32,000 bases of DNA from Candidatus Syntropharchaeum caldarium (GCA_001766815.1 LYOS01000002.1:354577-386576); one strand, 5' to 3'; counted from the stretch's first letter, positions 1 to 18,359 are shown. Notes: a model not told the origin generated them from the sequence alone. Numbers and translations are program-made.

Positions 1-620
1 AGATTGTGCCTGTATTGATCCCGCAACGAAAGGGCGATCCAAAGGTCTTTGATACGGATGAACGCCCTATGGAAACGAGTGTTGAGAAGATGGCAAAACT
101 TAAACCTGCTTTCATAAAGGATGGTACTGTTACCGCGGGAAATGCATCTGGTATTAACGATGGGGCTGCCGCACTTCTGCTGACATCGAGAAAGTTTGCA
201 GAGGAAAATGGCCTGAAGATAAGGGCAACGATAAAAGGGTATGCCGCAGGTGCTGTGGATCCACAGTATATGGGACTTGGTCCAATACCTGCAACAAGAA
301 AACTCATGAATAAACTTGGGCTTACAGTCGATGATATGGATGTGATTGAGCTGAATGAGGCATTCGCGTCACAGGCTATCGCATGTATCAAAGAGCTTGG
401 ACTTCCGTTATACGGTGAGAGCGATGAGTATAATGATCCAGGATCTGAGAAAGTCAACCCATATGGATCTGGAATCTCGCTTGGACATCCGATCGGATGT
501 ACAGGTGCAAGACTTCTTGTAACGATGCTTCATGAGATGGAACGAAAAGATCTAAGGTATGGGCTTGCAACGCTCTGTATCGGTGGAGGACAGGGTATGT
601 CAATGGTGCTGGAGCGCTAA
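1..620 (+). CDS. Acetyl-CoA C-acetyltransferase (thiolase), C-terminal part. The 5' end lies outside the window.
   Basis: The ORF is open to the window edge. It carries thiolase C-terminal signatures: NEAFASQ, GSGISLGHPIGCTGARLL and CIGGGQG. Confidence 0.9.
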   Translation, partial: IVPVLIPQRKGDPKVFDTDERPMETSVEKMAKLKPAFIKDGTVTAGNASGINDGAAALLLTSRKFAEENGLKIRATIKGYAAGAVDPQYMGLGPIPATRKLMNKLGLTVDDMDVIELNEAFASQAIACIKELGLPLYGESDEYNDPGSEKVNPYGSGISLGHPIGCTGARLLVTMLHEMERKDLRYGLATLCIGGGQGMSMVLER

Positions 621-687: not shown

Positions 688-1524
688 TCAGTAACTGTTT
701 GTCCAGTTGTTCTGGTATGTTGATGCTGTCACATTGCTGCCTGCGGCCGAGAAGTCAGGGATTGACCAGCTTCCAGTCTCGTTCTCTGATGCTGAGAACT
801 CAAGCACGACGTTCTTTGTCCACGAGATATTGACACCAACCCCTGTATGACATCCAATGCAGGCTTCGTTCGCATCCTCCATCATGGTAACATTCTCAAT
901 TGAATCCAGTACGAACTTCTTGTGGGCTGCTAAGCTTCCTGTATCTGATGTGTTGATCGTCAGGTTGAAGCCCCCCGCTGGTGGGATGTAATACACATCT
1001 CCAGTAGCGGCATTTGCATGGCATCGACGGCAATCCTCATTATTTGTATATGCGCCCTCGTGAGCAGGCCTGTTGTTTGGATTCTGATTTGGAGCCTGAT
1101 GGCATGACCAGCAGTTAAAGCTTGCTGCATGTATCGGGGTCACGCCAGATTTATCCCCGCTGTGGCAGTACATGCAGGGAACGGTGGATGCGGCATGAGC
1201 CTCTTTTCCAGGTGTTGAACCCGTACCATCCCCAGATGCATATGTGTAATTTGTAAAGCTCGCATTCTGGCGGTAGATGGGGAACAACCTGTGACAGTAT
1301 CCACACTCCATCCTCCCATATCCGGTCTCACCTGAGTGAGCCGAGACGAGTGAGTTCATCTCATCCGCGATATCCCCATGACACTTCTCACATGGTAGAT
1401 CATTACCGCTCACATTCAGATTATACCATGAATGTTGCCCTGAAAAGAGTGCAACTGTCTGGGGAAGCGCGAATATACCTGTCATGATAACCGCAAGCAT
1501 CAGAAGCAAATGCGTCCTCCTCAT
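688..1524 (-). CDS. Multihaem c-type cytochrome with six CxxCH motifs and an N-terminal signal/anchor.
   Basis: The haem motifs are CEKCH, CGYCH, CMYCH, CWSCH, CRRCH and CIGCH. The N-terminus is hydrophobic and there are many NxS/T sequons. I prefer the ATG at 1524, preceded by GAGGTGA, over the GTG at 1533. Confidence 0.85.
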   Translation of the reverse strand: MRRTHLLLMLAVIMTGIFALPQTVALFSGQHSWYNLNVSGNDLPCEKCHGDIADEMNSLVSAHSGETGYGRMECGYCHRLFPIYRQNASFTNYTYASGDGTGSTPGKEAHAASTVPCMYCHSGDKSGVTPIHAASFNCWSCHQAPNQNPNNRPAHEGAYTNNEDCRRCHANAATGDVYYIPPAGGFNLTINTSDTGSLAAHKKFVLDSIENVTMMEDANEACIGCHTGVGVNISWTKNVVLEFSASENETGSWSIPDFSAAGSNVTASTYQNNWTNSY

Positions 1525-1558
1525 TTTTATCACCTCTATTGAAACCTATCGAGGGGTT

Positions 1559-1652: not shown

Positions 1653-2411
1653 TCAGTAACTGTTCGTCCAGTTGTTCCTGTATGTTGATGCTGTCACATT
1701 GCTGCCTGCGGCCGAGAAGTCAGGAATTGACCAGTTCCCATACTCATTCTCTGATGCTGAGAACTCAAGCACGACGTTCTTTGTCCAGGTGATGTTGACA
1801 CCAACGCGGGTATGGCATCCGATGCAGGCTTCGTTCGCACCTTCCATCAAGGACTCGTTCATCGCATCGAGCACAAACTTGCGGTGGGCTGCTTTCTCGC
1901 CTGTATCTGTGGCGGTGGTGTTATGTCCAGGGTTCGCAGGGTCTTCTATCCCGAAGCCACCGGCTGAGATGAAGTCGGAATATCCTCCACTCCAGTGACA
2001 TTTGTCACAGTTACCACTGTATTCTGAATAACTCCAGTGGTCCCATGTATAATACGAGCCATGATAGATCTCATGATAGATCCCATGACAGTCCATACAC
2101 TCGACCGTGGATGCTGCATGTGCTTCCTCGCCAGCGGTTGAACCAGAGCCCTCGCCACTGGCATAGGTGTAATTTGAAAAACAGGTTCTGTGGCACATCG
2201 CACACGTCAGATTACGATGCGCACCATTATCGCTATCTATCATCTCATCTGCTATATCACCATGGCATTTTTCACATGGAACATCATTGGGTCCTGCTGA
2301 GAGGTCATACCAGCTGTGCTGCCCTGAAAAGAGTGCTACCGACTGCGGGAGTGCGAATATTCCTATTGTAATCACTGCAACAAGCAGTAGCGAAAGATTC
2401 TTATGATTCAT
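1653..2411 (-). CDS. Multihaem c-type cytochrome with five CxxCH motifs; a tandem paralog of 688..1524.
   Basis: The haem motifs are CEKCH, CAMCH, CMDCH, CDKCH and CIGCH. The N- and C-termini are nearly identical to the neighbouring gene. The ATG at 2411 is preceded by GGAGG. Confidence 0.85.
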   Translation of the reverse strand: MNHKNLSLLLVAVITIGIFALPQSVALFSGQHSWYDLSAGPNDVPCEKCHGDIADEMIDSDNGAHRNLTCAMCHRTCFSNYTYASGEGSGSTAGEEAHAASTVECMDCHGIYHEIYHGSYYTWDHWSYSEYSGNCDKCHWSGGYSDFISAGGFGIEDPANPGHNTTATDTGEKAAHRKFVLDAMNESLMEGANEACIGCHTRVGVNITWTKNVVLEFSASENEYGNWSIPDFSAAGSNVTASTYRNNWTNSY

Positions 2412-2635
2412 CAATAGCCTCCAATATCATTGATTTAATATTATTACCCTGTGTACCCTTAATAAATATTTCGATCGCGAAAGAATAAAAAGTCCTTTCT
2501 GCACATACAATACAGATAGATTTATCATCATCCATCTCAAGTCAAAAGAGCTGGAGTTTTTAAAACAGTTCCACCTCTGGGTAACAAAGACTTAAGAAGC
2601 TGTGTGATCTTCTCTCTATAGGAAAGGGCTGATCT

Positions 2636-3562
2636 ATGAAATTCGTTGTAACAGGAGGAGCAGGTTTTATCGGCTCGAATCTGGCAGAAGAACTTGCTGA
2701 GATGGGGGAAGTCACGATCATCGATGACCTATCATCCGGGCGACTTGAAAATATCTCTGACCTGCTCGATAAGAATAATGTGAACTTTATCAGGGAAAGT
2801 ATTGCCAATTTGACGTCTCTCAAAGCACATTTTGCGGATGCTGACTGTGTATTCCACCAGGCCGCGATAGCTTCAGTCCAGAGATCGGTAGAAGATCCAC
2901 TGCTGATCGATGAGGTGAATGCAAGGGGTACGCTGAATGTTCTGATTGCAGCGCGTGATTGTGGGGTTAAAAAAGTGATCTGCGCATCTTCATCAGCGGT
3001 TTATGGCGACAGCCCGGAACTTCCGAAGCGAGAAGATATGAGTCCCTGCCCCCTCTCTCCTTATGCTGTCTCGAAGTTAACAGGCGAATACTACTGCAAA
3101 GTCTTTTCAGAGATCTATGGGATCGATACCGTCTCCCTCAGATATTTCAATGTCTATGGTCCAAGACAGGACCCCTCTTCCGAGTATGCGGCGGTTATAC
3201 CAAAGTTTATAAAAATACTGCTCAAAAAAGAGCCGCCCGTGATATTTGGAGACGGCACGCAGACACGAGATTTTGTCTTTGTTGAGGATGTTGTTAGAGC
3301 AAATATTCTGGCGATGAAACATGGTAATGTACGGGGAGTATTCAATGTGGCAGGTGGCAAGAAAATAACGATCAATGAACTTCTGAATACGATCATGGAG
3401 GTTGTGGGTATCGAGCTGGACCCCATTCATACTGAGCCAAGAGCAGGAGATATCAAAGATTCTGTGGCTGATATATCGTTGGCTAAGAACGTGCTTGGGT
3501 ATGAGCCAGCGTTCGATCTGAAAGAGGGGTTAAGTCGAACCATAAATTGGCTCAGGGAATAA
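2636..3562 (+). CDS. NAD-dependent nucleotide-sugar epimerase/dehydratase (UDP-glucose 4-epimerase family).
   Basis: It has the Rossmann motif GGAGFIGSNL and a YxxxK-type SDR core (SPYAVSKLTGE). At 308 aa its length is typical. Confidence 0.85.
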   Translation: MKFVVTGGAGFIGSNLAEELAEMGEVTIIDDLSSGRLENISDLLDKNNVNFIRESIANLTSLKAHFADADCVFHQAAIASVQRSVEDPLLIDEVNARGTLNVLIAARDCGVKKVICASSSAVYGDSPELPKREDMSPCPLSPYAVSKLTGEYYCKVFSEIYGIDTVSLRYFNVYGPRQDPSSEYAAVIPKFIKILLKKEPPVIFGDGTQTRDFVFVEDVVRANILAMKHGNVRGVFNVAGGKKITINELLNTIMEVVGIELDPIHTEPRAGDIKDSVADISLAKNVLGYEPAFDLKEGLSRTINWLRE

Positions 3563-3564
3563 AA

Positions 3565-4654
3565 ATGCCAGAAGAAGAATCATATCTGAATGAGTCGCTT
3601 CGTAAAGTTGCGAAAGGAGGGGGAATAGTTTTTGCAGGGACGTTCATCGGGTTGTTTCTTGGATATCTCTCAAGGATGGTCATTGGAAGATGGCTTGGCA
3701 CTGCTGATTATGGCCTGATCTCACTTGGATTTGCAGGGATGTCTATCGCACTAACACTTTCTATGGTTGGATTACCCGCTGGTATAACAAGATATGTATC
3801 TTACTACAAAGGTAAAAATGATGCAGGACGGATCAAGGGCACGATAATTGGGGCCTTGCAGATAAGTCTTCCCTTGAGTCTGATCTTTGCTTTTATTTTC
3901 TTCATTGGTGCTGAGTGGATCTCAACCAATTTCTTTAACAAACCAGAACTGGCGCCTGTTTTGAAGATATTCTCGATGGCAATCCCCTTTTATGTTCTGA
4001 CTCAAAACTTCCTTTCTACAACAATCGGGCTTCAGCATATGCAGTATAGCGTTTATACAGAACATATCTTCCAGAATATCTTCAAGATAATTGCGATTGT
4101 AATCCTGCTTCTTTTGGGGTTGGTGTTTCAGGGGCAGCATGGGAATGGGTTCTTGCAATTGTGTTAATGCCATTTCTGGCTTTTTATTTCCTGGAAAAGA
4201 AAGTCTTCCCTCTTTTAAAGAGCGATATAAAAGCGGTGTCCATGAAGAAGGAGCTTTTTTTATTCTCTTTCCCGCTGGTTTTCTCTGGTATTGCGGGTAT
4301 GATCACAACATGGACTGATACACTTATGCTGGGTTATTTTTGCACGGCATCGGATGTCGGGATTTCTGATACCGCGCTTTGGAATAGAGGGGGCAGCAAT
4401 TGCAACCTCCTTTTCGCTCATATTTGGAGTGACTTTCAATTTTGGTGTTGTTTACCACCTGACTAAAGTACATCATCGGTGTTACCCTCATCTCGATGGT
4501 GATGATGCTCCCGGTTTTTCTGATTCTCTACCTGATTATACTTCTACTTGTGAAAGGGTTTGAGGAAGTGGATCTGATGATAATGCGTGCGATAGATGAA
4601 AAGCTCGGGATGAATACAGGCTGGGTAAGGAGGTTAATAGGCAGATTTTTGTAA
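3565..4654 (+). pseudogene. Polysaccharide biosynthesis flippase (Wzx/PST family) broken by at least three frameshifts.
   Basis: One continuous multi-TM protein can be read only by hopping frames near 4110-4125, near 4350-4390 and near 4465-4475. The final frame ends ...VRRLIGRFL* at 4654. Confidence 0.7.
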
Positions 4655-4669
4655 AGAGATGGATCGCTC

Positions 4670-5425
4670 TCACTTTTCACTTAGCTCTGGATTTAATCCA
4701 CCTTTGACATTCTCTTCCATGAGCTTTCCTGTGACCTCCCACAGTTCCTCAGCATCCCTGTATCCAACTGTAGAAATGCCGTATATAATCGAATTTGCTA
4801 TGAGATCCTTCTCCTCACCGGGGGCGCCGATCGGTATTGGCCTATTAATCGGTATCGCCATCTGGTTCTTGGTATAGAGGACGGTGTTATTTGCCCTATC
4901 ATAACGGTATCTCTGCCGTGCATCGAACATCAGCCCATCCTCATCCAGCCGCATGGCGGAGCCATGAACCGTGATACCACGAATCGCTGTTCTCGCAGTG
5001 TCAAAGACCTCAGTCTCGATAAGCTCTTTTGCATACTTTTCAAGATCTCGCTCCCTCGCTTCCATAAGCTCTCTTCCTGAGTAGCAGATCGTATCAACGC
5101 CGCGATAACGTGTATGATACATCCTCCCCCTGAATACAGGTGTTATTGGTGAGTGGTGAACCGAGTCTGTGAACTGGATATAACGTATCTTATCCCCGCT
5201 CTGTGCACCCGGTGTTGGCTCAATGAGATCTCTTATCGGATCTTCTATCTCTTTAAGTTCATCAAGCGGTGGATGCACCGATCTGTACTGCTCTCCAGGA
5301 TTTCTGTGTCCAAGCAGCACAACGAGGTCATCATCCGATACCTCCCTCAGGCGCCTCAGTTTCGTATCCTTATCAAGGATCATTCTTCGCCTCTCGGCAA
5401 CTCTATCTGTACCTGGATAAATCAT
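4670..5425 (-). CDS. mcrG: Methyl/alkyl-coenzyme M reductase gamma subunit.
   Basis: It is 251 aa. YPGTDRVAERRR...LLGHRNPGEQY matches the McrG N-terminal pattern. The RBS GGGAGGT is embedded in the last codons of the upstream gene. Confidence 0.9.
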   Translation of the reverse strand: MIYPGTDRVAERRRMILDKDTKLRRLREVSDDDLVVLLGHRNPGEQYRSVHPPLDELKEIEDPIRDLIEPTPGAQSGDKIRYIQFTDSVHHSPITPVFRGRMYHTRYRGVDTICYSGRELMEARERDLEKYAKELIETEVFDTARTAIRGITVHGSAMRLDEDGLMFDARQRYRYDRANNTVLYTKNQMAIPINRPIPIGAPGEEKDLIANSIIYGISTVGYRDAEELWEVTGKLMEENVKGGLNPELSEK

Positions 5426-5429
5426 CTTT

Positions 5430-7094
5430 TTACCTCCCTGGTTTTATTGGATCGCGGTCGCCCTCTGGCATGAATTCCTGCTGTGTACCACGAGCGATCT
5501 CCCTGCGCGGATATTTGAAATTAAACGGTAGTTTTGAATCTGCAAACGCCACCTTTACCACCGGGCTTAAGCACCACGCATCACCACGCGCAGCATGTGC
5601 CGAGACAATGGCTGATGCAGATGTGGCAACCGTGATGGCATTTGTGGAGTCTGAAGAGAAGTTTGGACTCTTGAATTCAGGAACAAGTCCCTCGTCAGGT
5701 ATCATAGATGCCGCAAAGGCGAGGTTGAGGTGATCGATTGAATCCTGTCCACCAAAAGACCCCCTGCCCCATGCCTCTTTCATGAGATATGCCTGTGCAT
5801 AATTGTATCCTATCATTCCCGCGAGTGAATGTCCTGTTGCAAGTCCTGAACTCAAACCAGCAAGTGTTGAGAGCATTACAACCCGCTGAGCACCTCCCCA
5901 GTGGTGTTCAAGTAGAAGCGGGTAGCGATTGTACTCCTCCATCAGGTGGAAGGTCATCTCGTGGGTGACATCCCTGATCACATCAAATGACGGTTTAGCC
6001 ATGGCAAACCCACCATATCGATCTTTTATCCAGTCTGCGATATAGTTTGTCTCCTCTTCAAGGACGTTGTTTGTATATATGACCGCGCCTGCATTGACGC
6101 CACCGATACCCCCAAGCACGTAGGAGTTTACCCACATGTGGAGATAGTAGTAGATCGAGAGTGCCATGCTCTCAACGCAGTAGCTCACAGGATCCCCCTC
6201 ATTGACCGCATCTGCCTGACAGAAGTCGCCCACGTACCCATAAGGTACTCCTACAGGCTCACCAGGTCCTCTTCCTCTGCGGGGCCATGAAGGTGTCCCA
6301 AGCAGTACATACTGCATATGCTTGGATGTCAGTGAGAAATCTGCAAGTACCGCACCGCCCCCAAGTGCGTACGCAGTTATAAATGCGAGTGTGGTCTGAT
6401 TCGCCGCCCATCGGTGGACGATACCAGCGTCAGAGATTCTGACCGCGATCGTGGGAATACGTGTGGCCTGGAAGAGGCGTTTACCAATTCCTTCTTTCAG
6501 ATCTTCTGCCTGCTTCTCAGGATACTCTTTATCTATATCGATGATATACTGGTCATCGATGTGATCTAAAAGTTCATCATTTCCGCTCATGAGCTTTACA
6601 GACGCATCTTTTGTCATCGCAGGATTTATCTCTGGCATATGTTCCTGTGCAACTGCACCACCAACAATGGTGTGGTTTGCAACCTCGAGATATCTGTTTA
6701 TTGTCTCAGGTGTTACGGTTGCTCCGATTCTGACCTCGAGCATCTTGTGTGCCATATCAAGCCCTGCTATCGCGGTTCGCTTGATATCGTCCCCAAGCTG
6801 TTGCATTGCAGCGTTGTTTATCTGGTGAAGATCTTCAGCCTCACACATCGTCTCGGTTCCAGATATGTAGTATGGTTCGATGAAACGTTGTCCCAGCGGA
6901 ACACCCATATCATCCCGATCTCCTTGATAGCCCGTGAGACCGCGTTCTTTAAGAAGCTCCTTTGCCAGCTTCACATATTCCTGCTTGCGTTTTGATTGCT
7001 TCCACCCCCCAAACTGGAAGAAGGTTGTATACTCACGTGTTGCATCGTCTTCATCAAACGTTGCCATCAAAAGATCTATTGCCTTTTTTTTCAT
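5430..7094 (-). CDS. mcrA: Methyl/alkyl-coenzyme M reductase alpha subunit; highly divergent and probably of the alkyl-CoM reductase type.
   Basis: It is 554 aa with McrA hallmarks: GGWKQS, NNAAMQQ, PRRGRGPGEPVG, WGGAQR and AHAARGDAW. The active-site stretches differ from canonical McrA (see findings). Confidence 0.9.
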   Translation of the reverse strand: MKKKAIDLLMATFDEDDATREYTTFFQFGGWKQSKRKQEYVKLAKELLKERGLTGYQGDRDDMGVPLGQRFIEPYYISGTETMCEAEDLHQINNAAMQQLGDDIKRTAIAGLDMAHKMLEVRIGATVTPETINRYLEVANHTIVGGAVAQEHMPEINPAMTKDASVKLMSGNDELLDHIDDQYIIDIDKEYPEKQAEDLKEGIGKRLFQATRIPTIAVRISDAGIVHRWAANQTTLAFITAYALGGGAVLADFSLTSKHMQYVLLGTPSWPRRGRGPGEPVGVPYGYVGDFCQADAVNEGDPVSYCVESMALSIYYYLHMWVNSYVLGGIGGVNAGAVIYTNNVLEEETNYIADWIKDRYGGFAMAKPSFDVIRDVTHEMTFHLMEEYNRYPLLLEHHWGGAQRVVMLSTLAGLSSGLATGHSLAGMIGYNYAQAYLMKEAWGRGSFGGQDSIDHLNLAFAASMIPDEGLVPEFKSPNFSSDSTNAITVATSASAIVSAHAARGDAWCLSPVVKVAFADSKLPFNFKYPRREIARGTQQEFMPEGDRDPIKPGR

Positions 7095-7099
7095 GATTT

Positions 7100-8434
7100 T
7101 TAACCCCCTATCTCCTCTGCAGCCTCTGCAATTCTTGAAAGTGGATCTTTTAAGACTGGGAGCACCTCTCTGAGCTTGAAGATATGCTTTGATGTAACTT
7201 CTGGCATGTACATCTGGGTTCCGGCATCAAGACACATCGCAGCAACAGCACATGGGATTATGAAGCCCTTTGAACCTTTGGTTACAACATGCTCCCCAGA
7301 GAAGATCCCAACCTCTCCACCGCCGTAACTATTGTGTGTCAGCCATTCAAAGAGTGTGGCAGTCCCAAGCGCCCTTCCAAAGTCAACACCAGGGAGCGAC
7401 GTTGCTAATGCAAGCAGATCACTGTAGAACTGCATCGCAGACGGTACACCCTGGGCAGACCTTGACGCTCCTGCATTCTGGATCGCTGCAGCAAGGAGCC
7501 CCGCAGATGCGTAGGCGTTCCACATCGAGGCATCGTGGGTCGAGTACATCTCATATCCTGAAGGGAGCTTCTTCTCAAGCTCGATAATACCGTCTCGAAG
7601 CGCACGTTCGGTGACATCCTCGATTATATCGAGCACTGTAGCGTTCCCATGATCGCGTACAAGCTCATACACCATGTTTTTTGCGTTTAAACCCTGATAA
7701 GCCATGCCAAGCAGGTGATAACGCTTGTAAGGGCCTATCGCAGCACCTGATTCAAATGCTGCTGCATGTTCCAGCACCGAGCTTAGTGCAACCGCATCAA
7801 AAGTGCGTCTGCCAGCCAGCGCAACGATCGTATTGACAGAAGGCGTCCTGTATGCAACACCTGCCCCCTCGATATGCATTGGGAATGAGAGGAGCGTTGA
7901 GACTGCTCCACCTGAAGGGGTAACAGTCTGCGGGAACCTGCCCATGATGGCACATTTAACCATATCAACACCATCAAATATTCCAAGATTGAACTCATCA
8001 ATGATCGCATGGGCAAGTGCTGTTGCTGGAAGCAGATACGCCTGCGTATATTCTGTCCCTGTCTCAAGCATGATCGATGGTATCTGAACGATTAGCAGGG
8101 AGTCAAGTATCTCAAGTCTTGTATCATCATCATCCGCGACTTTGAGCATCTCGCGCATCCGCTCTGCGATAGAAGCTGCATGCTCTTTGATGGGCAGATC
8201 AACCTCTCTCCCAAGAATTCTGCATTCACCACCGACAGCCATCGTGTTTCCAACGCTACCGCTCTTGAGTGAAGTTTCAAGCTTATTTAAATCGATTATG
8301 GCAGTGCGTTTAAGTGTATGTAGAATCTCCCTTATCGCACTGTTTTTATAAGGGCTTAGTGCATCATAATGAATATTTTCTGCAACAGACACACCACGAT
8401 CGTTATAAATCGTAAATCTATCGCTATCATTCAT
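7100..8434 (-). CDS. mcrB: Methyl/alkyl-coenzyme M reductase beta subunit.
   Basis: McrB-like sequence runs throughout: LGMAYQGLNA, MWNAYASAGLLAA and SKGFIIPCAVAAMCLDAGTQM. I prefer the ATG at 8434 (MNDSDRFTIYNDRG) over the TTG at 8449. Confidence 0.9.
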   Translation of the reverse strand: MNDSDRFTIYNDRGVSVAENIHYDALSPYKNSAIREILHTLKRTAIIDLNKLETSLKSGSVGNTMAVGGECRILGREVDLPIKEHAASIAERMREMLKVADDDDTRLEILDSLLIVQIPSIMLETGTEYTQAYLLPATALAHAIIDEFNLGIFDGVDMVKCAIMGRFPQTVTPSGGAVSTLLSFPMHIEGAGVAYRTPSVNTIVALAGRRTFDAVALSSVLEHAAAFESGAAIGPYKRYHLLGMAYQGLNAKNMVYELVRDHGNATVLDIIEDVTERALRDGIIELEKKLPSGYEMYSTHDASMWNAYASAGLLAAAIQNAGASRSAQGVPSAMQFYSDLLALATSLPGVDFGRALGTATLFEWLTHNSYGGGEVGIFSGEHVVTKGSKGFIIPCAVAAMCLDAGTQMYMPEVTSKHIFKLREVLPVLKDPLSRIAEAAEEIGG

Positions 8435-8456
8435 GGCATCAATGTACAATCTTTTA

Positions 8457-8472
8457 TGTTATAAGGTTTTCG
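8457..8472 (-). promoter_or_regulatory. Candidate BRE/TATA for the mcr operon.
   Basis: The minus strand reads CGAAAACCTTATAACA about 25 nt upstream of the ATG at 8434. No Shine-Dalgarno sequence lies in between, which would imply a leaderless or very short-leader transcript. Confidence 0.3.
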
Positions 8473-8512
8473 AAAAAATAGTTAGTATTAAAAGTAAAAA
8501 GGCCTGAAAAAC

Positions 8513-8647
8513 TCAAGCCTTCGATTCAAGCTCTTTTATAAGCATCTCTTTCAGGGTTTTTGCATTATCTTTTGAAAGCTCAAGCTCAACCCGACCAAGC
8601 GTAATCAGCCTCGCACCGCTCCTCGTCAGATTTACTTCTATCTCCAT
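8513..8647 (-). CDS. Small 44-aa protein, paralogous to the N-terminus of the 116-aa protein upstream. It is not in the ORF track.
   Basis: My own translation is MEIEVNLTRSGARLITLGRVELELSKDNAKTLKEMLIKELESKA*. An RBS, TAGGTG, lies 7-8 nt upstream. It aligns with MEIEVYKTARGRFLLTIGRLDIELDEEDANTLKTKLE of 8657..9007. Confidence 0.6.
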   Translation of the reverse strand: MEIEVNLTRSGARLITLGRVELELSKDNAKTLKEMLIKELESKA

Positions 8648-8656
8648 ACACAACAC

Positions 8657-9007
8657 CTACTTGATGTAACTATCCGCGATCCTGCGTGTAGCTTCAATAT
8701 CTGCCTTCATCCCGAGTTCAAGGATGTTCTTCAGCGTCGCCTTTGTGTACTCGCCTCGCATGAACTGGGTTGCAAGCCCCTTTTCTCTTGGCCACATCTC
8801 AATCTTTGCTGATGTGATCAGGACAAGCATATCTTCCCTGAAGTTTTCAAGCTCGTCCTCATCGAGTGTAAGCAGTCCTTCGAGCCAGTCTGTCATCTCA
8901 AGCTTCGTTTTGAGCGTGTTTGCGTCTTCCTCATCCAGTTCGATATCGAGACGTCCTATCGTGAGCAAAAACCTGCCACGCGCTGTTTTATAGACCTCGA
9001 TCTCCAT
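8657..9007 (-). CDS. Hypothetical 116-aa protein, acidic and predicted helical.
   Basis: An intact ORF with RBS GAGGTGG, 9 nt downstream of the ATPase gene. I do not recognise a family. Confidence 0.6.
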   Translation of the reverse strand: MEIEVYKTARGRFLLTIGRLDIELDEEDANTLKTKLEMTDWLEGLLTLDEDELENFREDMLVLITSAKIEMWPREKGLATQFMRGEYTKATLKNILELGMKADIEATRRIADSYIK

Positions 9008-9016
9008 TCTGCCACC

Positions 9017-10447
9017 TCATACATATGGTGTGAGCTTCAGCGTTGGAGATCCGTCAACAAATACAGTATCAACGTTGTAAATCCACGTCTCAGGTTTAAT
9101 TCCATAGAGCACAACAGTTCGATCGAGCGTAGTGAGTTTGAGATACTTGCTCGCCATGTCAACAAGCTCATCCCTGATGGCAAGGTTTGGTGTGACTCTC
9201 ACGATATCAACATTACCTCTCTCCTTGGTGGTCTCAATATTCACGCTAATCTCTTTTATTCCTGTACTTAACTCTCCGATCTCTTTCAGGCGGTAAGGGA
9301 ATTCAAGCATATCAGCACCGATAAAACCAATAACTGGTGATTCTTTCGAGATTTTATGCTCCCTTATTGTCCGCAGGTCATCCTTTATCGAGTTACCTTT
9401 GAGCGGCACCATATTTTCACGTGGTTCTGCTCCTTCTGGATGGATCTCAAAGACAGTCAAATTTTTTCTGTACTTATCCTCATCGACAAAAGGCCCCAGG
9501 ACCTTTCTCCATCGAGCTTCATTTCTACCACAGCATGGAAGCGCCACGACCGGATGATCATTCTGTATCGCGTTGATGAAAGTTACACCGACAATAGCCT
9601 GATAGCCCCATCCAGAGATGTCATCCCCGACCTCGAAGACGTTGAACGAACCTCGCCTGAAACCACCTCCAAGGATCTTGTCGAGATCTTCACTTCCTGA
9701 AGATACAAAATTTCCCTTATCGGGTATCGGTTTTACCTTTGTAGGCCCTGTTGGAGGTATTGACTTGATCCCAAACGGATTGAAGATCTGAAAACGCCCA
9801 TCCAGTAGTGTAAATGGGTATTTTGGTTGATCGATACGTGTCCGCCTTAACTTGGACATGTAGATCTCCCTTACACGCCTGTACTCGATCATGATATCAT
9901 TGAATACGACGATACCGTCAACAAGGTAATCAAGTGTTGTAACATCCATCGTCTCACCTGTTAGAATGAGGTTGATGTTACGTTCTCGCACAAGTTCAGT
10001 CACAAGTGCCTCAAGCCTTGCCATCTCAACCGGCTCACACTGTAGCTTTATCGCATCCCAGCTATCGATCACAACCGTGACCCCTTCCCCCATCTCACTG
10101 ATCCTTCTTGCAAGTACCTCAGGGAATGTCATTGTTCCGGTCATTGCAGACGTATATACCGTGTAATCGGTCGGGACATAGATCTTGCTCGTGTCTATAA
10201 TATTTATCGGTTCGATACACTCCTCAAGCCATGGGAAGTGTGTGTAGAGTGCTTTTGGCGAGACCCTTGTTGAAAGGTAAATCCCCTCTCCGCCTACTGC
10301 ACGAAGCAGTTCAAGTGCTAAGGAGGTTTTGCCCACACCTGGTCTCCCTTTCAAGAGGAGTGAGAAACCCCCTGGCTTTTCGATAGCTCTCAAAAGTTCT
10401 GCAGGAACGTGCGTCCTGCTCTCTTCGGCACCACTTAATTCAGCCAT
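9017..10447 (-). CDS. KaiC/RecA-superfamily P-loop ATPase (GvpD-like, two-domain).
   Basis: It has a Walker A motif, LLLKGRPGVGKTSLALELL, and a Walker B-like VVIDSWD. The length is about 476 aa. An alternative GTG start lies at 10456. Confidence 0.7.
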   Translation of the reverse strand: MAELSGAEESRTHVPAELLRAIEKPGGFSLLLKGRPGVGKTSLALELLRAVGGEGIYLSTRVSPKALYTHFPWLEECIEPINIIDTSKIYVPTDYTVYTSAMTGTMTFPEVLARRISEMGEGVTVVIDSWDAIKLQCEPVEMARLEALVTELVRERNINLILTGETMDVTTLDYLVDGIVVFNDIMIEYRRVREIYMSKLRRTRIDQPKYPFTLLDGRFQIFNPFGIKSIPPTGPTKVKPIPDKGNFVSSGSEDLDKILGGGFRRGSFNVFEVGDDISGWGYQAIVGVTFINAIQNDHPVVALPCCGRNEARWRKVLGPFVDEDKYRKNLTVFEIHPEGAEPRENMVPLKGNSIKDDLRTIREHKISKESPVIGFIGADMLEFPYRLKEIGELSTGIKEISVNIETTKERGNVDIVRVTPNLAIRDELVDMASKYLKLTTLDRTVVLYGIKPETWIYNVDTVFVDGSPTLKLTPYV

Positions 10448-10660
10448 ATTAATCACAATAGTTCATTATAGATCTTATCCTATTTAAACTTTTGTATTCT
10501 TACATCATTTTCAATTAGAATTCCGCTGAATTTTACACGATGTTACCACCGAAAGACAGAACCTCTTCATCAAAATAGAATAAGTTTATTAATGATAAAC
10601 TTTAATAATGATAATTAGGTGGATCTATGATAAATATATCTCTTGGAGGCAAGATTTAAG

Positions 10661-11332
10661 ATGATTACAGGTGAACGCAAGGATCTCGAAGAGCTGATGG
10701 AGATCGTTAAAACATACAACAGTCTCGCTGTCGTTGGATGCGATGGCTGTGTGGGGATATATCAGATAGGTGGGTTCAAAGAGGCGGAATCGCTTGCATC
10801 GCTCTTGAAGATGGGGGATAAGATCAAGAATGGTGTTGTTCAGGATGCAGAGGCATTTACCGTTATCAGGCAGTGTGATAAGGAGCTTATCGAGAAGGAA
10901 CTTGGTGGAAAACTTGATAAATTTGAGGCGATAGTCTCGACTGCATGTGGTGTCGGTGTCCAGACGATGGCAGCGGTATTCGAGGATAGGGTCGTTTATC
11001 CAGCTCTGAACACACTATTCATGGGAGCGCAGGATCGGGAAGGGGCGGAGCTTTATGAGCTGTGTAAAGGATGCGGTGACTGTGTGCTCCATTTAACAGG
11101 TGGGATCTGCCCCATGACTCGATGCGCAAAAGGACTCCTCAACGGTCCCTGTGGTGGGGCGGTTGATGGTAAGTGCGAGGTGGGCGATTACACGAATGAC
11201 TGTGCATGGGTTCTGATCTACGAAAAGTTGAAATCAATGGATCGACTCGACCTGTATACAACTTTCCGTTTACCGAGGGACAGAAGGCCGTCAATGAGCC
11301 CAAGAAAGCTTGCAGGGGGTGCAAAGTATTGA
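10661..11332 (+). CDS. metV: MetV-like protein (methylene-tetrahydrofolate reductase C-terminal-domain family, Cys-rich).
   Basis: It carries the motif GGICPMTRCAKGLLNGPCGG together with CKGCGDC. GGAGG lies 10 nt upstream of the ATG at 10661, and the TTG at 10643 overlaps that RBS. Confidence 0.75.
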   Translation: MITGERKDLEELMEIVKTYNSLAVVGCDGCVGIYQIGGFKEAESLASLLKMGDKIKNGVVQDAEAFTVIRQCDKELIEKELGGKLDKFEAIVSTACGVGVQTMAAVFEDRVVYPALNTLFMGAQDREGAELYELCKGCGDCVLHLTGGICPMTRCAKGLLNGPCGGAVDGKCEVGDYTNDCAWVLIYEKLKSMDRLDLYTTFRLPRDRRPSMSPRKLAGGAKY

Positions 11333-11352
11333 CTGAAGTTTATAGCGACTTG

Positions 11353-12252
11353 ATGAAGAAGATCAAGGAGGGCAAGTTTGTTTTTACAGGTGAGCTTGAG
11401 CCTGAGAAGACGACAGATCTCACCGAGCTTGTTGAGAGCGCCAAAAAACTTCTTGGTCACTGTGTTGCGTGCAATGTGACAGATAACCCCCAGTCAATGG
11501 CTTACATGTCAAGCCTCGTGGCATCACATATCGTCCAGCGTGATTCAGGGATGGAGTGCGTCTATCAGCTCAGGTGTTCTGATAGAAACTCGATTGCGTT
11601 AACATCAGATCTTCTGGGGGCGGGTGCACTTGGCATCAGGAACGTTCTTGCCTTAACAGGCGATCATACATCTCTGGGGGATTATCCAGGGTCGATGCCT
11701 GTCTTCGATCTTGATTCTGGGCAGCTTGTATATCTGATCAGGCGCATGGTGGATGAGGGGGTTGATCTCAATGGAAAGCCGATAGAACATCCACCCAGGT
11801 TCCACGTAGGCGTGGCTGGAAACCCAAACGCAGACCCGCTCGATTCTGAGATCTTGAAGCTCAAACGGAAGGTCGAGGCTGGGGCTGAGTTTGTCCAGAC
11901 ACAGGTCATATTCGATATTGAGATTGCAAAGACGTTCCTTAAAGAGATGGAGAAGTACAAGGTCCCGGTCTTAATCGGCATTTTCCCGCTCAAGAACTAT
12001 GGAACAGCCGATTACTTCGATAAGTATATTCCAGGCGTGCACGTGCCAAAAGATCTTCTTGCAAAGATGAAAGAGGCATCGGAGATCGGAGACAAGAAGA
12101 AGAAGATGGAGCGGTATGATGAGATAAACCTCGACTATTACGGAGATTTTGTCCATGAAATCGCACATAACACCTCTGCTGCTGGAATACATGTCATGGC
12201 GGTGGCTTATGAGCGGATAACCCCACCACTTATCGAGTGTGCGAAAATATGA
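11353..12252 (+). CDS. metF: MetF-type 5,10-methylene-tetrahydrofolate/H4MPT reductase.
   Basis: The N-terminus GKFVFTGELEPEKT matches MetF and the fold length is about 300 aa. An alternative TTG start at 11329 overlaps the metV stop (TTGA) and follows a GGGGGTG RBS. Confidence 0.8.
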   Translation: MKKIKEGKFVFTGELEPEKTTDLTELVESAKKLLGHCVACNVTDNPQSMAYMSSLVASHIVQRDSGMECVYQLRCSDRNSIALTSDLLGAGALGIRNVLALTGDHTSLGDYPGSMPVFDLDSGQLVYLIRRMVDEGVDLNGKPIEHPPRFHVGVAGNPNADPLDSEILKLKRKVEAGAEFVQTQVIFDIEIAKTFLKEMEKYKVPVLIGIFPLKNYGTADYFDKYIPGVHVPKDLLAKMKEASEIGDKKKKMERYDEINLDYYGDFVHEIAHNTSAAGIHVMAVAYERITPPLIECAKI

Positions 12253-14210
12253 GTCGGGATGAGATAAAAATCGGGGTCTATGTCTGCCACTGCGGGATAA
12301 ACATCGAGGCGACGGTTGATACTGCAAGGGTTGCTGAGTTTGCCTCTCACCTACCAGGAGTTGTTGTTGCAAGAGACTACAAGTATATGTGTTCAGATCC
12401 TGGCCAGGAACTGATCAGGGAAGATATGCGTGAGCTTGGGGTAAACAGGGTCGTTGTTGCATCCTGTTCACCCAGAATGCATGAACCAACATACAGAGCG
12501 GTACTTGCAGAGACGGGTGGGAATGAATACTGCTTCGAGATGGCAAATATCCGTGAGCAGTGCTCATGGGTTCATAAGAACAGAGAAGAAGGTACAAAGA
12601 AGGCGATGGATCTTGTAGAAGGGGCTGTTGCCAGGGCCTACCTGCTTGAACCACTTGAGCCAAGAGAGGTTGATGTAATCCCTGCGTGTCTCGTCATCGG
12701 GGGTGGTGTTTCGGGGATCTATGCCGCACTTGGTGTTGCAGAGAAGGGATTCAAGACCTATCTTGTCGAGAAGACGCCTTCGATCGGTGGACACATGGCA
12801 CAGCTTGATAAAACTTTTCCAACGCTGGACTGTTCGGCATGTATTTTAACACCCAAGATGGTCGATGCCGCAAGACACCCCAATATCGAGCTTATGACCT
12901 ACTCAGAGGTTATGGATGTCTCAGGATATGTCGGTAACTTCAACGTTACAATCCGTAAGAAGCCGAGATATATCGATATCGACCTGTGTACAGGCTGTGG
13001 GCTTTGCGGTGAGGCGTGCATCCTTTCTGGAAAGATCCCCAATGAGTTTGATATGAAAAAGGGAAAACGGGGGGCGGCATATGTTCCATTTCCACAGGCA
13101 GTGCCTTTGAAGTACACGATCGATCCTGAAAATTGCATCTTCCTGAAGAAGGGCAAGTGCGGAAAGTCACCAGCCTGTCAGGAAGCCTGTCCAAGAGATG
13201 CAATAGATTTCACGCAACGGGAAGAGATCGTTGAGATTGAAGTTGGATCGATCATCATCGCAACAGGTTATGACCTCTTTGACCCGTCCACAGAACCGCA
13301 GTATGGGTACGGACTTCCGAATGTGATAACAGGCCTTGAATTTGAGCGTCTGATCAATGCATCAGGTCCAACCGGTGGCAAGGTGCTTCTTGAGAATGGA
13401 GAGTATCCCAAAAAAGTTGTTCTGATCCAGTGTGTCGGATCAAGGGAGATCGGGGGTAGATCGTACTGTTCGCGGTTCTGCTGTATGTATACCGCAAAGC
13501 ATGCACACCTGATCGAGGAGAAGATAGAGGGTGCAGAGGTTACAGTTCTATATACTGATGTCAGAGCGTTTGGGAAAGGATTTGAGGAGTTTTACAACCG
13601 TGTCAAGTCGGAAGGAATCAACTACATCTGGCGTGATCTATATGCGTCGATCGAGGTGACACAGAACGGTGATGGCCTGAAGGTCAAAGCAGAAGGTGTT
13701 GGACCCATCGAGCTTGATGCTGATATGGTCGTGCTTGCAACCGCTGCTGTTCCATCCCGGGATGCAAAAGAGATCGGAAGCGTTCTCAAGATCCCGGAGA
13801 GTCCTGACGGCTTTTTCATGGAGTCCCATCCCAAGCTCAAGCCGATCGATACAGCATCTGATGGGATATTCCTTGCAGGCTGCTGTCAGTCACCAAAAGA
13901 CATTCCTGATTCGGTCGCACAGGCGTGTGGAGCGGCTTCCAGGGCTGCGATCTCACTCTTCAGGGGTAAGGTGCCGATCGAGGTTATCTCATCCCAGATC
14001 AATGAAGAGATCTGCTCAGGCTGCAGGATGTGTGAAGAGATCTGTGCCTATGGTGCACTTAGCTTTGACGAAGAAAAAGGTCTTATGACCGTGAATGAAG
14101 TGCTGTGCAAGGGGTGCGGTTCATGCGCTTCGACATGTCCATCAGGTGCGATTACGATGAAACACTACAAGGATGCGCAGATATTTGCGCAGATCGAGGC
14201 GGTGGTTTGA
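12249..14210 (+). CDS. hdrA: Heterodisulfide reductase subunit A (canonical architecture).
   Basis: It shows VCHCGINI, CSPRMHE, NIREQCSWVH, GGGVSG, LDCSACILTPK, an inserted 2x[4Fe-4S] ferredoxin domain, CSRFCCMY and a C-terminal 2x[4Fe-4S] domain. An ATGA overlap links it to the metF stop. Confidence 0.9.
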   Translation: MSRDEIKIGVYVCHCGINIEATVDTARVAEFASHLPGVVVARDYKYMCSDPGQELIREDMRELGVNRVVVASCSPRMHEPTYRAVLAETGGNEYCFEMANIREQCSWVHKNREEGTKKAMDLVEGAVARAYLLEPLEPREVDVIPACLVIGGGVSGIYAALGVAEKGFKTYLVEKTPSIGGHMAQLDKTFPTLDCSACILTPKMVDAARHPNIELMTYSEVMDVSGYVGNFNVTIRKKPRYIDIDLCTGCGLCGEACILSGKIPNEFDMKKGKRGAAYVPFPQAVPLKYTIDPENCIFLKKGKCGKSPACQEACPRDAIDFTQREEIVEIEVGSIIIATGYDLFDPSTEPQYGYGLPNVITGLEFERLINASGPTGGKVLLENGEYPKKVVLIQCVGSREIGGRSYCSRFCCMYTAKHAHLIEEKIEGAEVTVLYTDVRAFGKGFEEFYNRVKSEGINYIWRDLYASIEVTQNGDGLKVKAEGVGPIELDADMVVLATAAVPSRDAKEIGSVLKIPESPDGFFMESHPKLKPIDTASDGIFLAGCCQSPKDIPDSVAQACGAASRAAISLFRGKVPIEVISSQINEEICSGCRMCEEICAYGALSFDEEKGLMTVNEVLCKGCGSCASTCPSGAITMKHYKDAQIFAQIEAVV

Positions 14211-14212
14211 GG

Positions 14213-15928
14213 ATGAAGATACTTGTATTTATCTGCGGGTGCCAGGGAAAGATCGAGGAGGTGCTTGATCTCGATGCACTCTCAGCCTTCACATCCACGA
14301 TCGAGGACGTCGAGGCAGTGAAGATCGATCGATACCTCTGTGGTAAGGAGGGTCTCTCGCTCTTCAAAGAGGAGGTTATGCGTGTTAAGCCCGATCGCGT
14401 GATCATTGCTGGATGCTCTCCCCGTCTTCATGGCGAGATATTTGCAGAGGCGCTAGAAGACGCTGGTATGAATCCACACCTCAGAGAGCATGTGAACATC
14501 AGAGAACAGTGTGCATGGGCGCACTTCGATGATTTAGATGGTGCAAACCGCAAGGCAAAGAAGCTCATGGAGATGGGGATTGCAAAGGTCAGGCTCAAGC
14601 GACCGCTTGACAAGATTAATGTAGAGATGAAACCAGCAGCTCTTGTTATTGGTGGTGGTGTTTCTGGTATGGAAGCAGCTTTGGATCTTTCAAATGGTGG
14701 TTTCAAGGTTTATCTTGTTGAACGAGAAGCTGAACTTGGTGGACGAGTCAAACGATTGAGCCAGACATTTCCCACTGTTGGATGCGGCATCTGCTGTATG
14801 CATGACTGTCCTGATTGTGTACTCACACCACAGGTGGAGGAGGTCTTATCTGATGAGAATATCGAGGTCTTAACCTCCACGACCGTTGAGAAGGCGGATG
14901 GCTTTATTGGAAACTATAAAGTTAGACTCACCGGTGGCGGAGAGATCGATGTTGGAACTGTAATAATTGCAACAGGAACCAAGACTTTTGATCCGAACCG
15001 TATTCCTGAGTATAGCTATTCCTCAGCCGATGTCATAACCTCGCTTGAGCTTGAGGATCTCTATATGAAGGCACGGTCAGATGGTGGCCAGATAAAGCGC
15101 CCCTCAGATGGTAAGATCCCTGAATCCATCAACTTCATCCAGTGTGTTGGATCAAGAGGGATCAAGGGTGGAAATCCGTACTGCTCGATCGTCTGCTGTA
15201 TATATGCACTTGGCCATGCGAGGGAGTTCAAGTCCCGCTACCCGGACGCTGAAGTTACCATTCATTACATCGATCTTAGATCACCCTATCGTGGATTTGA
15301 GGAGTACTACAACGAAGCACGTGATATGGGTGTTAACTTTGTAAGAGGAGAGATTGATAAAATTGAGGAGCGAGAGGACGGTGTCTATATTATGGGCACC
15401 AATCGAGATACAAAGGAGAGATATGAGATGAAATCAGATCTCGTAGTCCTCTCAGTCGGGCAGGAACCAGCGGATAATACGCGTGAGCTTGCAAATTTGT
15501 TCAACCTTGAGCTTGATCAGGACGGATTCTTTTTAGAGAAAAACCTGCGGCTGATCGGGGAGGATACATCGGGTGTCTATGTCGCTGGCGCAGCCAATGG
15601 TCCAAGAAATATACGTTACTCTGTCGCAGACGGAAGGGTTATGGCTGAAGCTGCCATCGAGCGAATCGGTGCTGAGAGAATCCTGCTTGAGGGGGTTGTT
15701 GCCAGAATTGATCAGGACCTCTGCATCAAATGTGCGACATGTCTTGAGGTATGCCCATACGGGATTGTTGAAATTGTCCGTGAGGATGCAGAAGAGATAC
15801 GTCTCGAGGTGCTTGAGGGTGGATGCAGGGCATGCGGGATATGTGCTGCTGAGTGCCCAGCATCTGCGATACAGCTTGAGGACTTCAGGGATGATCAGAT
15901 ACTTGCTGAGGTGGAGGTTGCGATATGA
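14213..15928 (+). CDS. HdrA-like flavoprotein, a variant lacking the inserted ferredoxin domain.
   Basis: It shows ICGCQGK, CSPRLHGE, NIREQCAWAH, GGGVSG and the new Cys motif CGICCMHDCPDC, plus CSIVCCIY and a C-terminal 2x[4Fe-4S] domain. The ATG lies 2 nt after the previous stop. Confidence 0.85.
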   Translation: MKILVFICGCQGKIEEVLDLDALSAFTSTIEDVEAVKIDRYLCGKEGLSLFKEEVMRVKPDRVIIAGCSPRLHGEIFAEALEDAGMNPHLREHVNIREQCAWAHFDDLDGANRKAKKLMEMGIAKVRLKRPLDKINVEMKPAALVIGGGVSGMEAALDLSNGGFKVYLVEREAELGGRVKRLSQTFPTVGCGICCMHDCPDCVLTPQVEEVLSDENIEVLTSTTVEKADGFIGNYKVRLTGGGEIDVGTVIIATGTKTFDPNRIPEYSYSSADVITSLELEDLYMKARSDGGQIKRPSDGKIPESINFIQCVGSRGIKGGNPYCSIVCCIYALGHAREFKSRYPDAEVTIHYIDLRSPYRGFEEYYNEARDMGVNFVRGEIDKIEEREDGVYIMGTNRDTKERYEMKSDLVVLSVGQEPADNTRELANLFNLELDQDGFFLEKNLRLIGEDTSGVYVAGAANGPRNIRYSVADGRVMAEAAIERIGAERILLEGVVARIDQDLCIKCATCLEVCPYGIVEIVREDAEEIRLEVLEGGCRACGICAAECPASAIQLEDFRDDQILAEVEVAI

Positions 15929-17634: not shown

Positions 17635-18359
17635 AGATTCTTGTATTCTGCTGTGACTGGTGTTCCTACCCAGGTGCGGATCTTGCAGGCATCCTGAGGC
17701 TTGAATATCCACCAGAAGTCAGGATCATAAAGGTGATGTGCTCAGGCAGGGTGGATCCGATGCTCGTGCTCGATGCGTTGAGGCAGGGAATTGATGGCGT
17801 GATGGTGACAGGTTGCCATCCTGGTGAATGCCACTACGTCCACGGGAATATGGAGGCTGAGCGAAGGATTGAGCTTCTAAGATCAATATTTGAGAGATCT
17901 GGGATAAACCCCAGGCGTGTGAGGATTGAGTGGATCTCGGCATCAGAGGGTGAAAAGTTTGCAGAGGTTACACGTGCATTTAAACAGGAGATCGATGAGA
18001 TTGGACCCATCAATCAAGGTGAGATCGATGCAGCAGAAATCATCCATGATGTATTCTCATCAGAGCGGGCAAGACTTGTCCTTGGCGCTTCAAGGCGTGC
18101 GATCGAACTTGAGGGCGTTGATCCTCTCTGGTATAAAGGGGTTCTTGAGCGTACGGTGCGAGAGGAGGTTTTGCGTGAGCGGATACTCAGAGAACTGCGA
18201 AAGAGTGGTGCCCTGAGCGCACATGAACTTGCAGAACGGATCGGTGAACCAGCAAAGGAGATCTTCTGGAACTTGATCGCGATGAAACGAAGGCAGATCA
18301 TTCTTGATATGGGGATAGTAGATGATTCACTCAAGTTTGCCATACAGGAGGGTGTGTGA
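17631..18359 (+). CDS. mvhD: MvhD-like [2Fe-2S] protein with a C-terminal extension of about 110 aa (possible winged helix).
   Basis: The N-terminal part, FCCDWCSY...VMCSGRVD...VTGCHPGECHY, matches MvhD. Residues from about 128 to 242 are extra and include ILRELRKSGALSAHELAERIGEPAKEIFWNLIAMKRR. An ATGA overlap links it upstream. Confidence 0.85.
   Translation: MKILVFCCDWCSYPGADLAGILRLEYPPEVRIIKVMCSGRVDPMLVLDALRQGIDGVMVTGCHPGECHYVHGNMEAERRIELLRSIFERSGINPRRVRIEWISASEGEKFAEVTRAFKQEIDEIGPINQGEIDAAEIIHDVFSSERARLVLGASRRAIELEGVDPLWYKGVLERTVREEVLRERILRELRKSGALSAHELAERIGEPAKEIFWNLIAMKRRQIILDMGIVDDSLKFAIQEGV

Follow-up and report, generated by a model that had tools for sequence, protein, structure and literature searches.

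Three co-oriented genes resembling those of coenzyme M reductases lie on the minus strand of a 32,000-nucleotide (nt) stretch of DNA from Candidatus Syntropharchaeum caldarium (GCA_001766815.1, LYOS01000002.1:354577-386576), and they are transcribed in the order beta, alpha, gamma (B-A-G). This locus raises the question of whether it encodes a canonical methyl-coenzyme M reductase (MCR), as found in methanogens and anaerobic methanotrophic archaea (ANME), or a divergent alkyl-coenzyme M (alkyl-CoM) reductase (ACR), and whether its gene order is a peculiarity of one genome. We refer to the whole stretch as the window, to whose full length all coordinates apply, to the organism as Ca. Syntrophoarchaeum caldarius, and to the genes as acrB, acrA, and acrG. 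Family models, phylogeny, and gene-order comparison make it very probable that the operon is a divergent ACR and neither a methanogen nor an ANME MCR. The inversion of A and G relative to the canonical order B-(D-C)-G-A is an inherited trait of an ACR clade and not a peculiarity of this locus.

Family membership and phylogeny of the subunits

Protein family searches place all three products in the MCR/ACR superfamily. Full-length Pfam matches, far beyond chance, were obtained for the beta subunit (MCR_beta_N, E value 6e-47; MCR_beta, 4e-93), the alpha subunit (MCR_alpha_N, 2e-100; MCR_alpha, 6e-29), and the gamma subunit (MCR_gamma, 3.8e-93). Together with the positions of the open reading frames (ORFs), they confirm the three intact subunits in the minus-strand order beta-alpha-gamma that had been reported in a preliminary description of this DNA. 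Canonical MCRs were defined by the NCBIfam equivalogs TIGR03256 (alpha), TIGR03257 (beta), and TIGR03259 (gamma) with their curated cutoffs. Scores of 580.6 bits for alpha (cutoff 767.75) and 457.9 bits for beta (cutoff 516.25) fell short, and the gamma subunit alone scored above its cutoff (294.3 bits, cutoff 172.1). The alpha subunit is 56-76% identical to homologues from Ca. Syntrophoarchaeum, Syntropharchaeia, and Alkanophagales and 41-46% identical to canonical MCRs. Among solved structures, its best phmmer matches are methanogen MCRs (478-513 bits), with the structure of an ethyl-CoM reductase (ECR), 7B1S, at 349 bits.

Distance-based neighbour-joining trees with 100 bootstraps were built for alpha, beta, and gamma, as the preliminary description had proposed, with Kimura distances among 63 sequences for alpha. 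The alpha tree contains four groups with 100% support each: the canonical MCRs; the Helarchaeota/P0058 sequences; a divergent group of Syntrophoarchaeum and Alkanophaga paralogues with the order B-G-A (L021, L052, L029, and L050 in the survey below); and a group of Syntrophoarchaeum, Alkanophaga, and Archaeoglobaceae sequences that includes the window alpha. We use ACR-I as a working label for this Syntrophoarchaeum/Alkanophaga/Polytropus clade. The window alpha pairs with its counterparts from S. butanivorans contig03 and P0002 at 100%. The gamma tree recovers the ACR-I clade at 100% and groups the window protein with the L001 and L084 orthologues, also at 100%, and in the midpoint-rooted beta tree the ACR-I set lies to one side of the root (support 73%). 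The beta and gamma trees agree with the alpha tree, in which the window subunit does not cluster within the methanogen or ANME enzymes.

Could the operon nevertheless encode a canonical methane-metabolising MCR, of a methanogen or an ANME archaeon, with its genes merely reordered? The full-length Pfam matches, the gamma score above the equivalog cutoff, and the ranking of methanogen MCRs as best solved-structure matches speak for such an enzyme. Against it stand alpha and beta scores below their cutoffs, an alpha identity to canonical enzymes of just 41-46%, and a 100%-bootstrap clade that excludes every canonical MCR. Moreover, F330, Y333, and Y444 (numbered after the Methanothermobacter marburgensis MCR I alpha, checked as identical to PDB 3POT_A) are identical or conservatively replaced in three aligned canonical MCRs (Y444F in Methanolobus), while Gly, Ala, and Gly stand here, and the host is a multicarbon-alkane oxidiser reported without canonical Mcr (PMC10322722). 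We consider this explanation very improbable, and it is effectively refuted by the cutoffs, the identity, the clade placement, and the pocket residues.

The M. marburgensis MCR I (PDB 3POT/5A0Y) has the same three-subunit architecture and domain content as the window operon and shares with it Gln147, R225, K256, H257, R270, R271, Q400, G445, D450, and N481. It differs in its distant alpha subunit (phmmer, 478.4 bits to 3pot_A), in the order B-D-C-G-A with mcrD and mcrC inside the operon, where the window has B-A-G without either, and in having the bulky F330, Y333, and Y444 and no deletion in loop 239-246, in all of which the window is the opposite. The ECR of Ca. Ethanoperedens thermophilum (PDB 7B1S) is likewise a divergent MCR homologue for a non-methane alkane, encoded in an operon without mcrC and mcrD. 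However, it is far more distant (349 bits), its gene order is B-G-A (Shao et al. 2022), and its nickel axial ligand is Met (PMC9118554), a feature that not all ethanotroph enzymes share; the window protein has retained Gln. By bit score, axial ligand, and gene order, the window operon falls outside the ECR type.

Operon structure, source, and gene order

The three genes are tightly packed (Table 1). At the B/A junction the sequence reads GGGGG (7108-7104), T, TAA (7102-7100), aaatc, and ATG (7094), leaving a gap of 5 nt, and at the A/G junction GGGAGG (5438-5433), TAA (5432-5430), aaag, and ATG (5425), leaving a gap of 4 nt. Both gaps, and the ribosome-binding site for acrG within the last codons of acrA, were already given in the preliminary description and can be read directly. 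The ATG at 8434 is a more likely start for acrB than the TTG at 8449, because similarity to the S. butanivorans contig03 acrB starts there and the L084 orthologue is called at 444 amino acids (aa). A pattern search of the putative promoter region found two TATA-like motifs, CTTATA (8465-8460), which lies 31 nt ahead of ATG 8434, and TTTTAA (8493-8488). The co-oriented genes, the gaps of 5 and 4 nt, and the Shine-Dalgarno-like motifs inside the upstream genes indicate that acrBAG would almost certainly form a single transcript with coupled translation.

No MCR_C or MCR_D Pfam match was found among the 30 further ORFs of the window, and six-frame tblastn searches with McrD and McrC from five canonical operons and the MCR_C homologue from L086 returned no match in the window. 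The reported absence of mcrC and mcrD therefore holds for the operon and the window but not for the genome, for which two mcrC and one mcrD are tabulated elsewhere.

Table 1. Features of the acrBAG operon and of its surroundings in window coordinates
Feature	Position	Strand	Basis
acrB (mcrB-like beta)	7100..8449 from TTG, 449 aa; probable ATG 8434, 444 aa	-	ORF, Pfam
acrA (mcrA-like catalytic alpha)	5430..7094, 554 aa	-	ORF, Pfam
acrG (mcrG-like gamma)	4670..5425, 251 aa	-	ORF, Pfam
Shine-Dalgarno-like GGGGG in final acrB codons, 9 nt upstream of acrA ATG 7094	7104..7108	-	sequence; putative function
Shine-Dalgarno GGGAGG, the final two sense codons of acrA, 7 nt upstream of acrG ATG 5425	5433..5438	-	sequence; putative function
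Putative archaeal promoter, non-coding, A+T-rich by eye, upstream of acrB	8435..8512	-	pattern search
Truncated thiolase, cut by window edge	6-620		
Multihaem cytochrome	688-1533	-	
Multihaem cytochrome	1653-2414		
MetV/MetF	10643-12252	+	
Four HdrA-like and two MvhD genes	12237-20715	+	

The window alpha is identical at 554/554 residues to OFV68281.1 of Ca. S. caldarius, annotated as methyl coenzyme M reductase subunit alpha, and the set containing OFV68281.1 is the same as the window operon, with no detectable difference. An alkane- or methane-oxidising host had been anticipated from the context (multihaem cytochromes, MetF, HdrA copies, and a thiolase, all of which we found among the window ORFs), and the source is indeed an alkane oxidiser. 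In a survey of 307 mcr sets, Supplementary Data 1 of Shao et al. 2022 (PMC9584954) lists GCA_001766815.1 as A // BAG (LYOS01000002.1) // BAG (LYOS01000008.1) // BG // BGA // C // C // D. The S. butanivorans row reads A // BAG (contig 3) // BAG (contig 7) // BG // BGA (contig 7) // D, and our loci L001, L005, and L021 match it exactly. We are highly confident that the locus is one of two B-A-G-ordered ACR operons of Ca. S. caldarius and that its order is inherited clade-wide.

The source is a metagenome-assembled genome (MAG) with several similar paralogues, and two Logan contigs both break within the 3' end of acrB, so that an assembly or binning artefact might be suspected behind the B-A-G order. 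Nevertheless, the independently assembled Logan contig L081 (SRR3669912) matches window 1758-7229 at 100.000% identity (5472 nt), a span that takes in the end of B, the complete A and G genes, and the genes downstream. An exact-protein look-up returned contigs independently assembled from SRR3669912 and SRR3679449 with the same alpha-gamma-flippase-epimerase context. In addition, acrB shows an even identity of about 80% to its orthologue over the full length with no chimeric breakpoint, and at least nine further loci in seven different assemblies have the same order. We give an artefact practically no credence.

For the gene-order survey that the preliminary description had suggested, one genome per GTDB species was scanned with a profile of ACR-like alpha subunits, and B, A, and G were located by tblastn at the best 80 loci; further loci were looked up later, and the survey comprises 86 loci. 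The ECR sequences are too distant for the homologue search and the 80-locus scan, and their gene order was taken from the table of Shao et al. 2022. Nine of the best 80 loci have an alpha identity of at least 51%, with B-A-G in L001-L007 and B-A in L008 and L009, the contig of the last ending just past A. Their hosts are S. butanivorans (two loci), Syntrophoarchaeum sp. 12019_3, two Alkanophaga species, an Archaeoglobaceae MAG, and three other MAGs. In the 71 loci with an alpha identity of 46% or less, G stands before A throughout and B-A-G never occurs (0/71), although four of them (L028, L053, L063, and L080) are incomplete contigs missing B or G. The look-ups added B-A-G in the second S. 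caldarius set (L083) and in the 12019_3 orthologue (L084), B-G-A followed by MCR_C and a marker-protein cluster at the P0058 locus L086, and an isolated mcrA, lacking B and G within 6 kb, at the one Helarchaeota locus examined (L085). The second divergent clade (L021, L029, L050, and L052) has a tight B-G-A. In every ACR-I member with an examinable locus, A directly follows B, and this order is absent outside the group. Among the loci surveyed, B-A-G is thus confined to one ACR clade, and it is unlike the arrangement of canonical MCRs, which keep B-(D-C)-G-A, as had been suspected from the window.

At L008 (7536-10586), from a Halobacteriota tar-biofilm MAG, acrB-acrA is present without acrG in the 5.5 kb downstream. 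L006 (1809-4043, 7439-8341) carries an MCR_C homologue and an additional B-G pair upstream of its B-A-G set and is the sole surveyed ACR-I locus with an mcrC neighbour.

The orthologues in S. butanivorans contig03 (OFV66176.1, L001) and sp. 12019_3 contig 5 (P0002, L084) are 80% (B), 75-76% (A), and 77-78% (G) identical to the window proteins at the aa level. They share the B-A-G order, the tight spacing, and a joint 100%-bootstrap group in all three subunit trees, but their flanks are not syntenic with the window, and they have Ser at 445 and Ile at 400, where the window has Gly and Gln. The second S. caldarius B-A-G set (P0009, L083) and its orthologues in S. butanivorans contig07 (L005) and 12019_3 (L004) belong to the same clade, have the same order, and are preceded by a divergently transcribed MetV/MetF module; in L004, related multihaem cytochromes also follow downstream. 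Their alpha subunits, however, are only 56-58% identical to that of the window and carry F443V and Val or Ile at 445, and the window, unlike them, has two extra genes between acrB and metV. The Acr of Ca. Alkanophaga (L002 and L003; Zehnle et al. 2023), whose hosts oxidise C5-C14 alkanes at 70 degrees C (PMC10322722), is of the same clade and B-A-G order, with an alpha 59-60% identical and residue differences at 330, 332, 445, and 481.

Active site and proposed function

Alignment of the window alpha shows that the nickel axial ligand Q147 (window Q150), the coenzyme B (CoB)-binding R225, K256, R270, and R271, the positions of the modified residues H257, R271, Q400 (window Q403), G445 (window G449), and D450, and also N481 are kept. 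The bulky pocket residues are replaced by small ones (F330G, Y333A, and Y444G; window G332, A335, and G448), and F443 alone remains of the canonical aromatic pocket (F330, Y333, F443, and Y444). Further substitutions are Y446Q, C452L, M480T, V482A, and F396W, and loop 239-246 is one residue shorter (GGG-A versus AAGEAA). Lemaire and Wagner (PMC9118554) described the same loop deletion in Syntrophoarchaeum homologues and linked it to an open cleft in AlphaFold models. Together, these changes should enlarge the substrate cavity so that C3-C4 alkyl groups fit.

At position 445 (thioglycine) the window has Gly, whereas L001 and P0002 have Ser and the sister paralogues have Val or Ile; Gln400 is kept solely in the window protein among the aligned ACR-I members. 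Because of these differences, post-translational modification may differ between close orthologues. Position 444 is Gly in all nine (9/9) aligned ACR-I proteins.

Ca. S. caldarius is a minor archaeon of the Guaymas Basin 'Butane50' enrichment. This culture forms butyl-CoM and propyl-CoM (PMC9118554, PMC9081873), and from their detection at the culture level and from the family we infer alkyl-CoM chemistry for acrBAG. As in other members of the family, the three products would assemble into an (alpha-beta-gamma)2 F430 enzyme, which would convert a short-chain alkane, most likely propane or butane, and CoM-S-S-CoB to alkyl-S-CoM and HS-CoB and so initiate anaerobic alkane oxidation. The alkyl-CoM would be turned into acyl-CoA, which would then pass through beta-oxidation, for which a thiolase is present in the window, and the Wood-Ljungdahl pathway. 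MetF/MetV would act in place of Mer, the adjacent HdrA/MvhD would recycle electron carriers, and the multihaem cytochromes would hand electrons to a sulfate-reducing partner. McrC and McrD would act in trans from other loci, an ability demonstrated by experiment (Shao et al. 2022, PMC9584954).

Several points weigh against this account. Ca. S. caldarius makes up about 2% of the culture cells, and its role has been called unclear (PMC11543930). The genome holds four reductase sets, and the substrate of the acrBAG paralogue is deduced; a full-text literature search for OFV68281 and SCAL_ locus tags found no paralogue-specific expression data. The widened pocket, the promoter, and the single transcript are all sequence-level readings, and no C3 or C4 ACR is among the solved structures.

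The four sets also suggest an alternative in which they divide the labour, and the window operon, while a real ACR, acts on propane or some other non-butane alkane or works mainly in the reverse, alkane-forming direction. Gln400 and Gly445 set its active site apart from that of the closest orthologues, the culture also forms propyl-CoM (PMC9118554), and a back flux to butane has been measured in it (PMC11543930). The supposed division of substrates is itself conjectural, however, and the fact that the closest S. butanivorans orthologue differs from the top butane-expressed set (OFV67021.1, OFV66073.1, and OFV66072.1; PMC9118554) is neutral on any substrate. We judge this alternative unlikely.

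A silent or decaying spare copy without current function could likewise be imagined in a genome with four paralogous sets, from a minor culture member and in a region where a frameshifted adjacent flippase gene and a nearby integrase point to some flux. Yet none of the three ORFs is disrupted, the alignment shows conserved cofactor- and CoB-binding positions except for M480T and V482A, and the Shine-Dalgarno-like motifs and tight coupling are preserved. Orthologues of 75-80% identity have the same organisation in two other Syntrophoarchaeum genomes, a conservation that suggests purifying selection, and transcriptomics and proteomics show most MCR homologues to be highly abundant (PMC9118554). 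A spare copy is therefore quite improbable, and a working ACR for short-chain alkanes is the reading we prefer.

Neighbouring genes and significance of the gene order

A Polysacc_synt-family flippase near acrG is split into two ORFs (3547-4167 and 4161-4466, plus strand). Because the independent assembly L081 has the same split, the frameshift or pseudogene is real and does not stem from faulty sequencing in one assembly. Between acrB and a KaiC/GvpD-like ATPase (9017-10456) sit a 44-aa ORF, MEIEVNLTRSGARLITLGRVELELSKDNAKTLKEMLIKELESKA (8513-8647, minus strand), and an adjacent 116-aa ORF (8657-9007, minus strand), whose N terminus the shorter one resembles; no Pfam or NCBIfam family matches the longer ORF. 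The first two HdrA-like ORFs (12237-14210 and 14105-15928, plus strand) overlap by 106 nt as listed, and the second probably starts further downstream. The Hdr/MvhD cluster is immediately followed by a tyrosine integrase (20749-21804) and then by a stretch of low GC content (36-40% versus about 49%) with an Rv2578c-type radical SAM gene and a nucleotidyltransferase. An integrated element may occupy the segment 20749-26000. The ORF at 28590-29948 (minus strand), some 20 kb away from acrBAG, has as its best NCBIfam match F430_CfbB, Ni-sirohydrochlorin a,c-diamide synthase, at 543.8 bits, just below the cutoff of 560, while the CobB subfamily model passes; it is probably an F430-biosynthesis gene.

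A MetV/MetF module divergent from acrB recurs at several B-A-G loci (window 10643-20715, plus strand; L083 4-414; L004 811-2420; L005 6894-8494). The window MetV is 35-45% identical to the MetV beside the other B-A-G sets, and MetF is 51-54% identical (L004 and L005), which suggests that duplication may have involved more than the reductase genes themselves. The cytochrome at 688-1533 (minus strand) is 87% identical at the aa level to L004 8356-9171, which lies about 2 kb downstream of a paralogous acr set; in contrast, the L004 reductase genes are only 56-62% identical to those of the window. A cassette swap, in which one acr paralogue replaced another at a fixed position, was considered, as the flanks of L001 are not shared while L004 and L005 share the MetVF-Hdr module. 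It was rejected as unnecessary because a divergent MetV-like gene (35% identical to the window MetV) also accompanies L083, which means that MetVF modules have themselves been duplicated next to acr sets. Duplication of a larger metVF-acr module followed by rearrangement is a simpler reading, although it leaves the 87% similarity of the L004 cytochrome unexplained.

The Ca. Syntrophoarchaeum genomes and their mcr sets were reportedly first described by Laso-Perez and colleagues in 2016. Liu et al. 2020 named mcrBAG as the divergent type in Syntrophoarchaeum, and the order is stated for the genus in PMC7380581 and PMC9584954. The table of Shao et al. 2022 also gives BGA // C for Ethanoperedens and Argoarchaeum-type genomes, A // BAG // D for the Alkanophagales MAG B39-G2, and A // BAG // BG // C // D for Polytropus. 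Chadwick et al. 2022 (PMC9012536) described MetFV-HdrA-MvhD clusters in both Syntrophoarchaeum genomes, and Zehnle et al. 2023 (PMC10322722) and two reviews (PMC9118554, PMC9081873) again report four reductase copies and MetF in place of Mer. The literature thus already covers this genome with its four reductase sets and B-A-G order, mcrC and mcrD encoded in trans, and the MetFV-HdrA-MvhD cluster.

ACRs carry methanogenesis-type chemistry to propane, butane, and longer alkanes and are the basis of anaerobic hydrocarbon oxidation at seeps and vents. Their significance rests with the 2016 discovery of Ca. Syntrophoarchaeum and later surveys and not with the window. The increment here is that the B-A-G order tracks one well-supported clade across 86 loci, together with a residue map of one paralogue. 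The portions of the literature text available to us contain no statement of a one-to-one match between clade and order, BAG being noted "in some" genomes. As a tentative proposal, possible but somewhat doubtful, the A-G inversion would be a single ancient rearrangement and a strict, tree-independent marker of one ACR clade, perhaps repeatedly co-travelling with a divergent metVF. The marked clade may span Syntrophoarchaeum, Alkanophaga, Archaeoglobaceae/Polytropus, and several further lineages, and the inversion may be missing in the second divergent Syntrophoarchaeum/Alkanophaga clade, the ECRs, the examined Helarchaeota locus, and canonical MCRs. If this is true, gene order would be usable for tracing the horizontal transfer of ACRs, and B-A-G might reflect an altered order of subunit assembly in which gamma is translated last.

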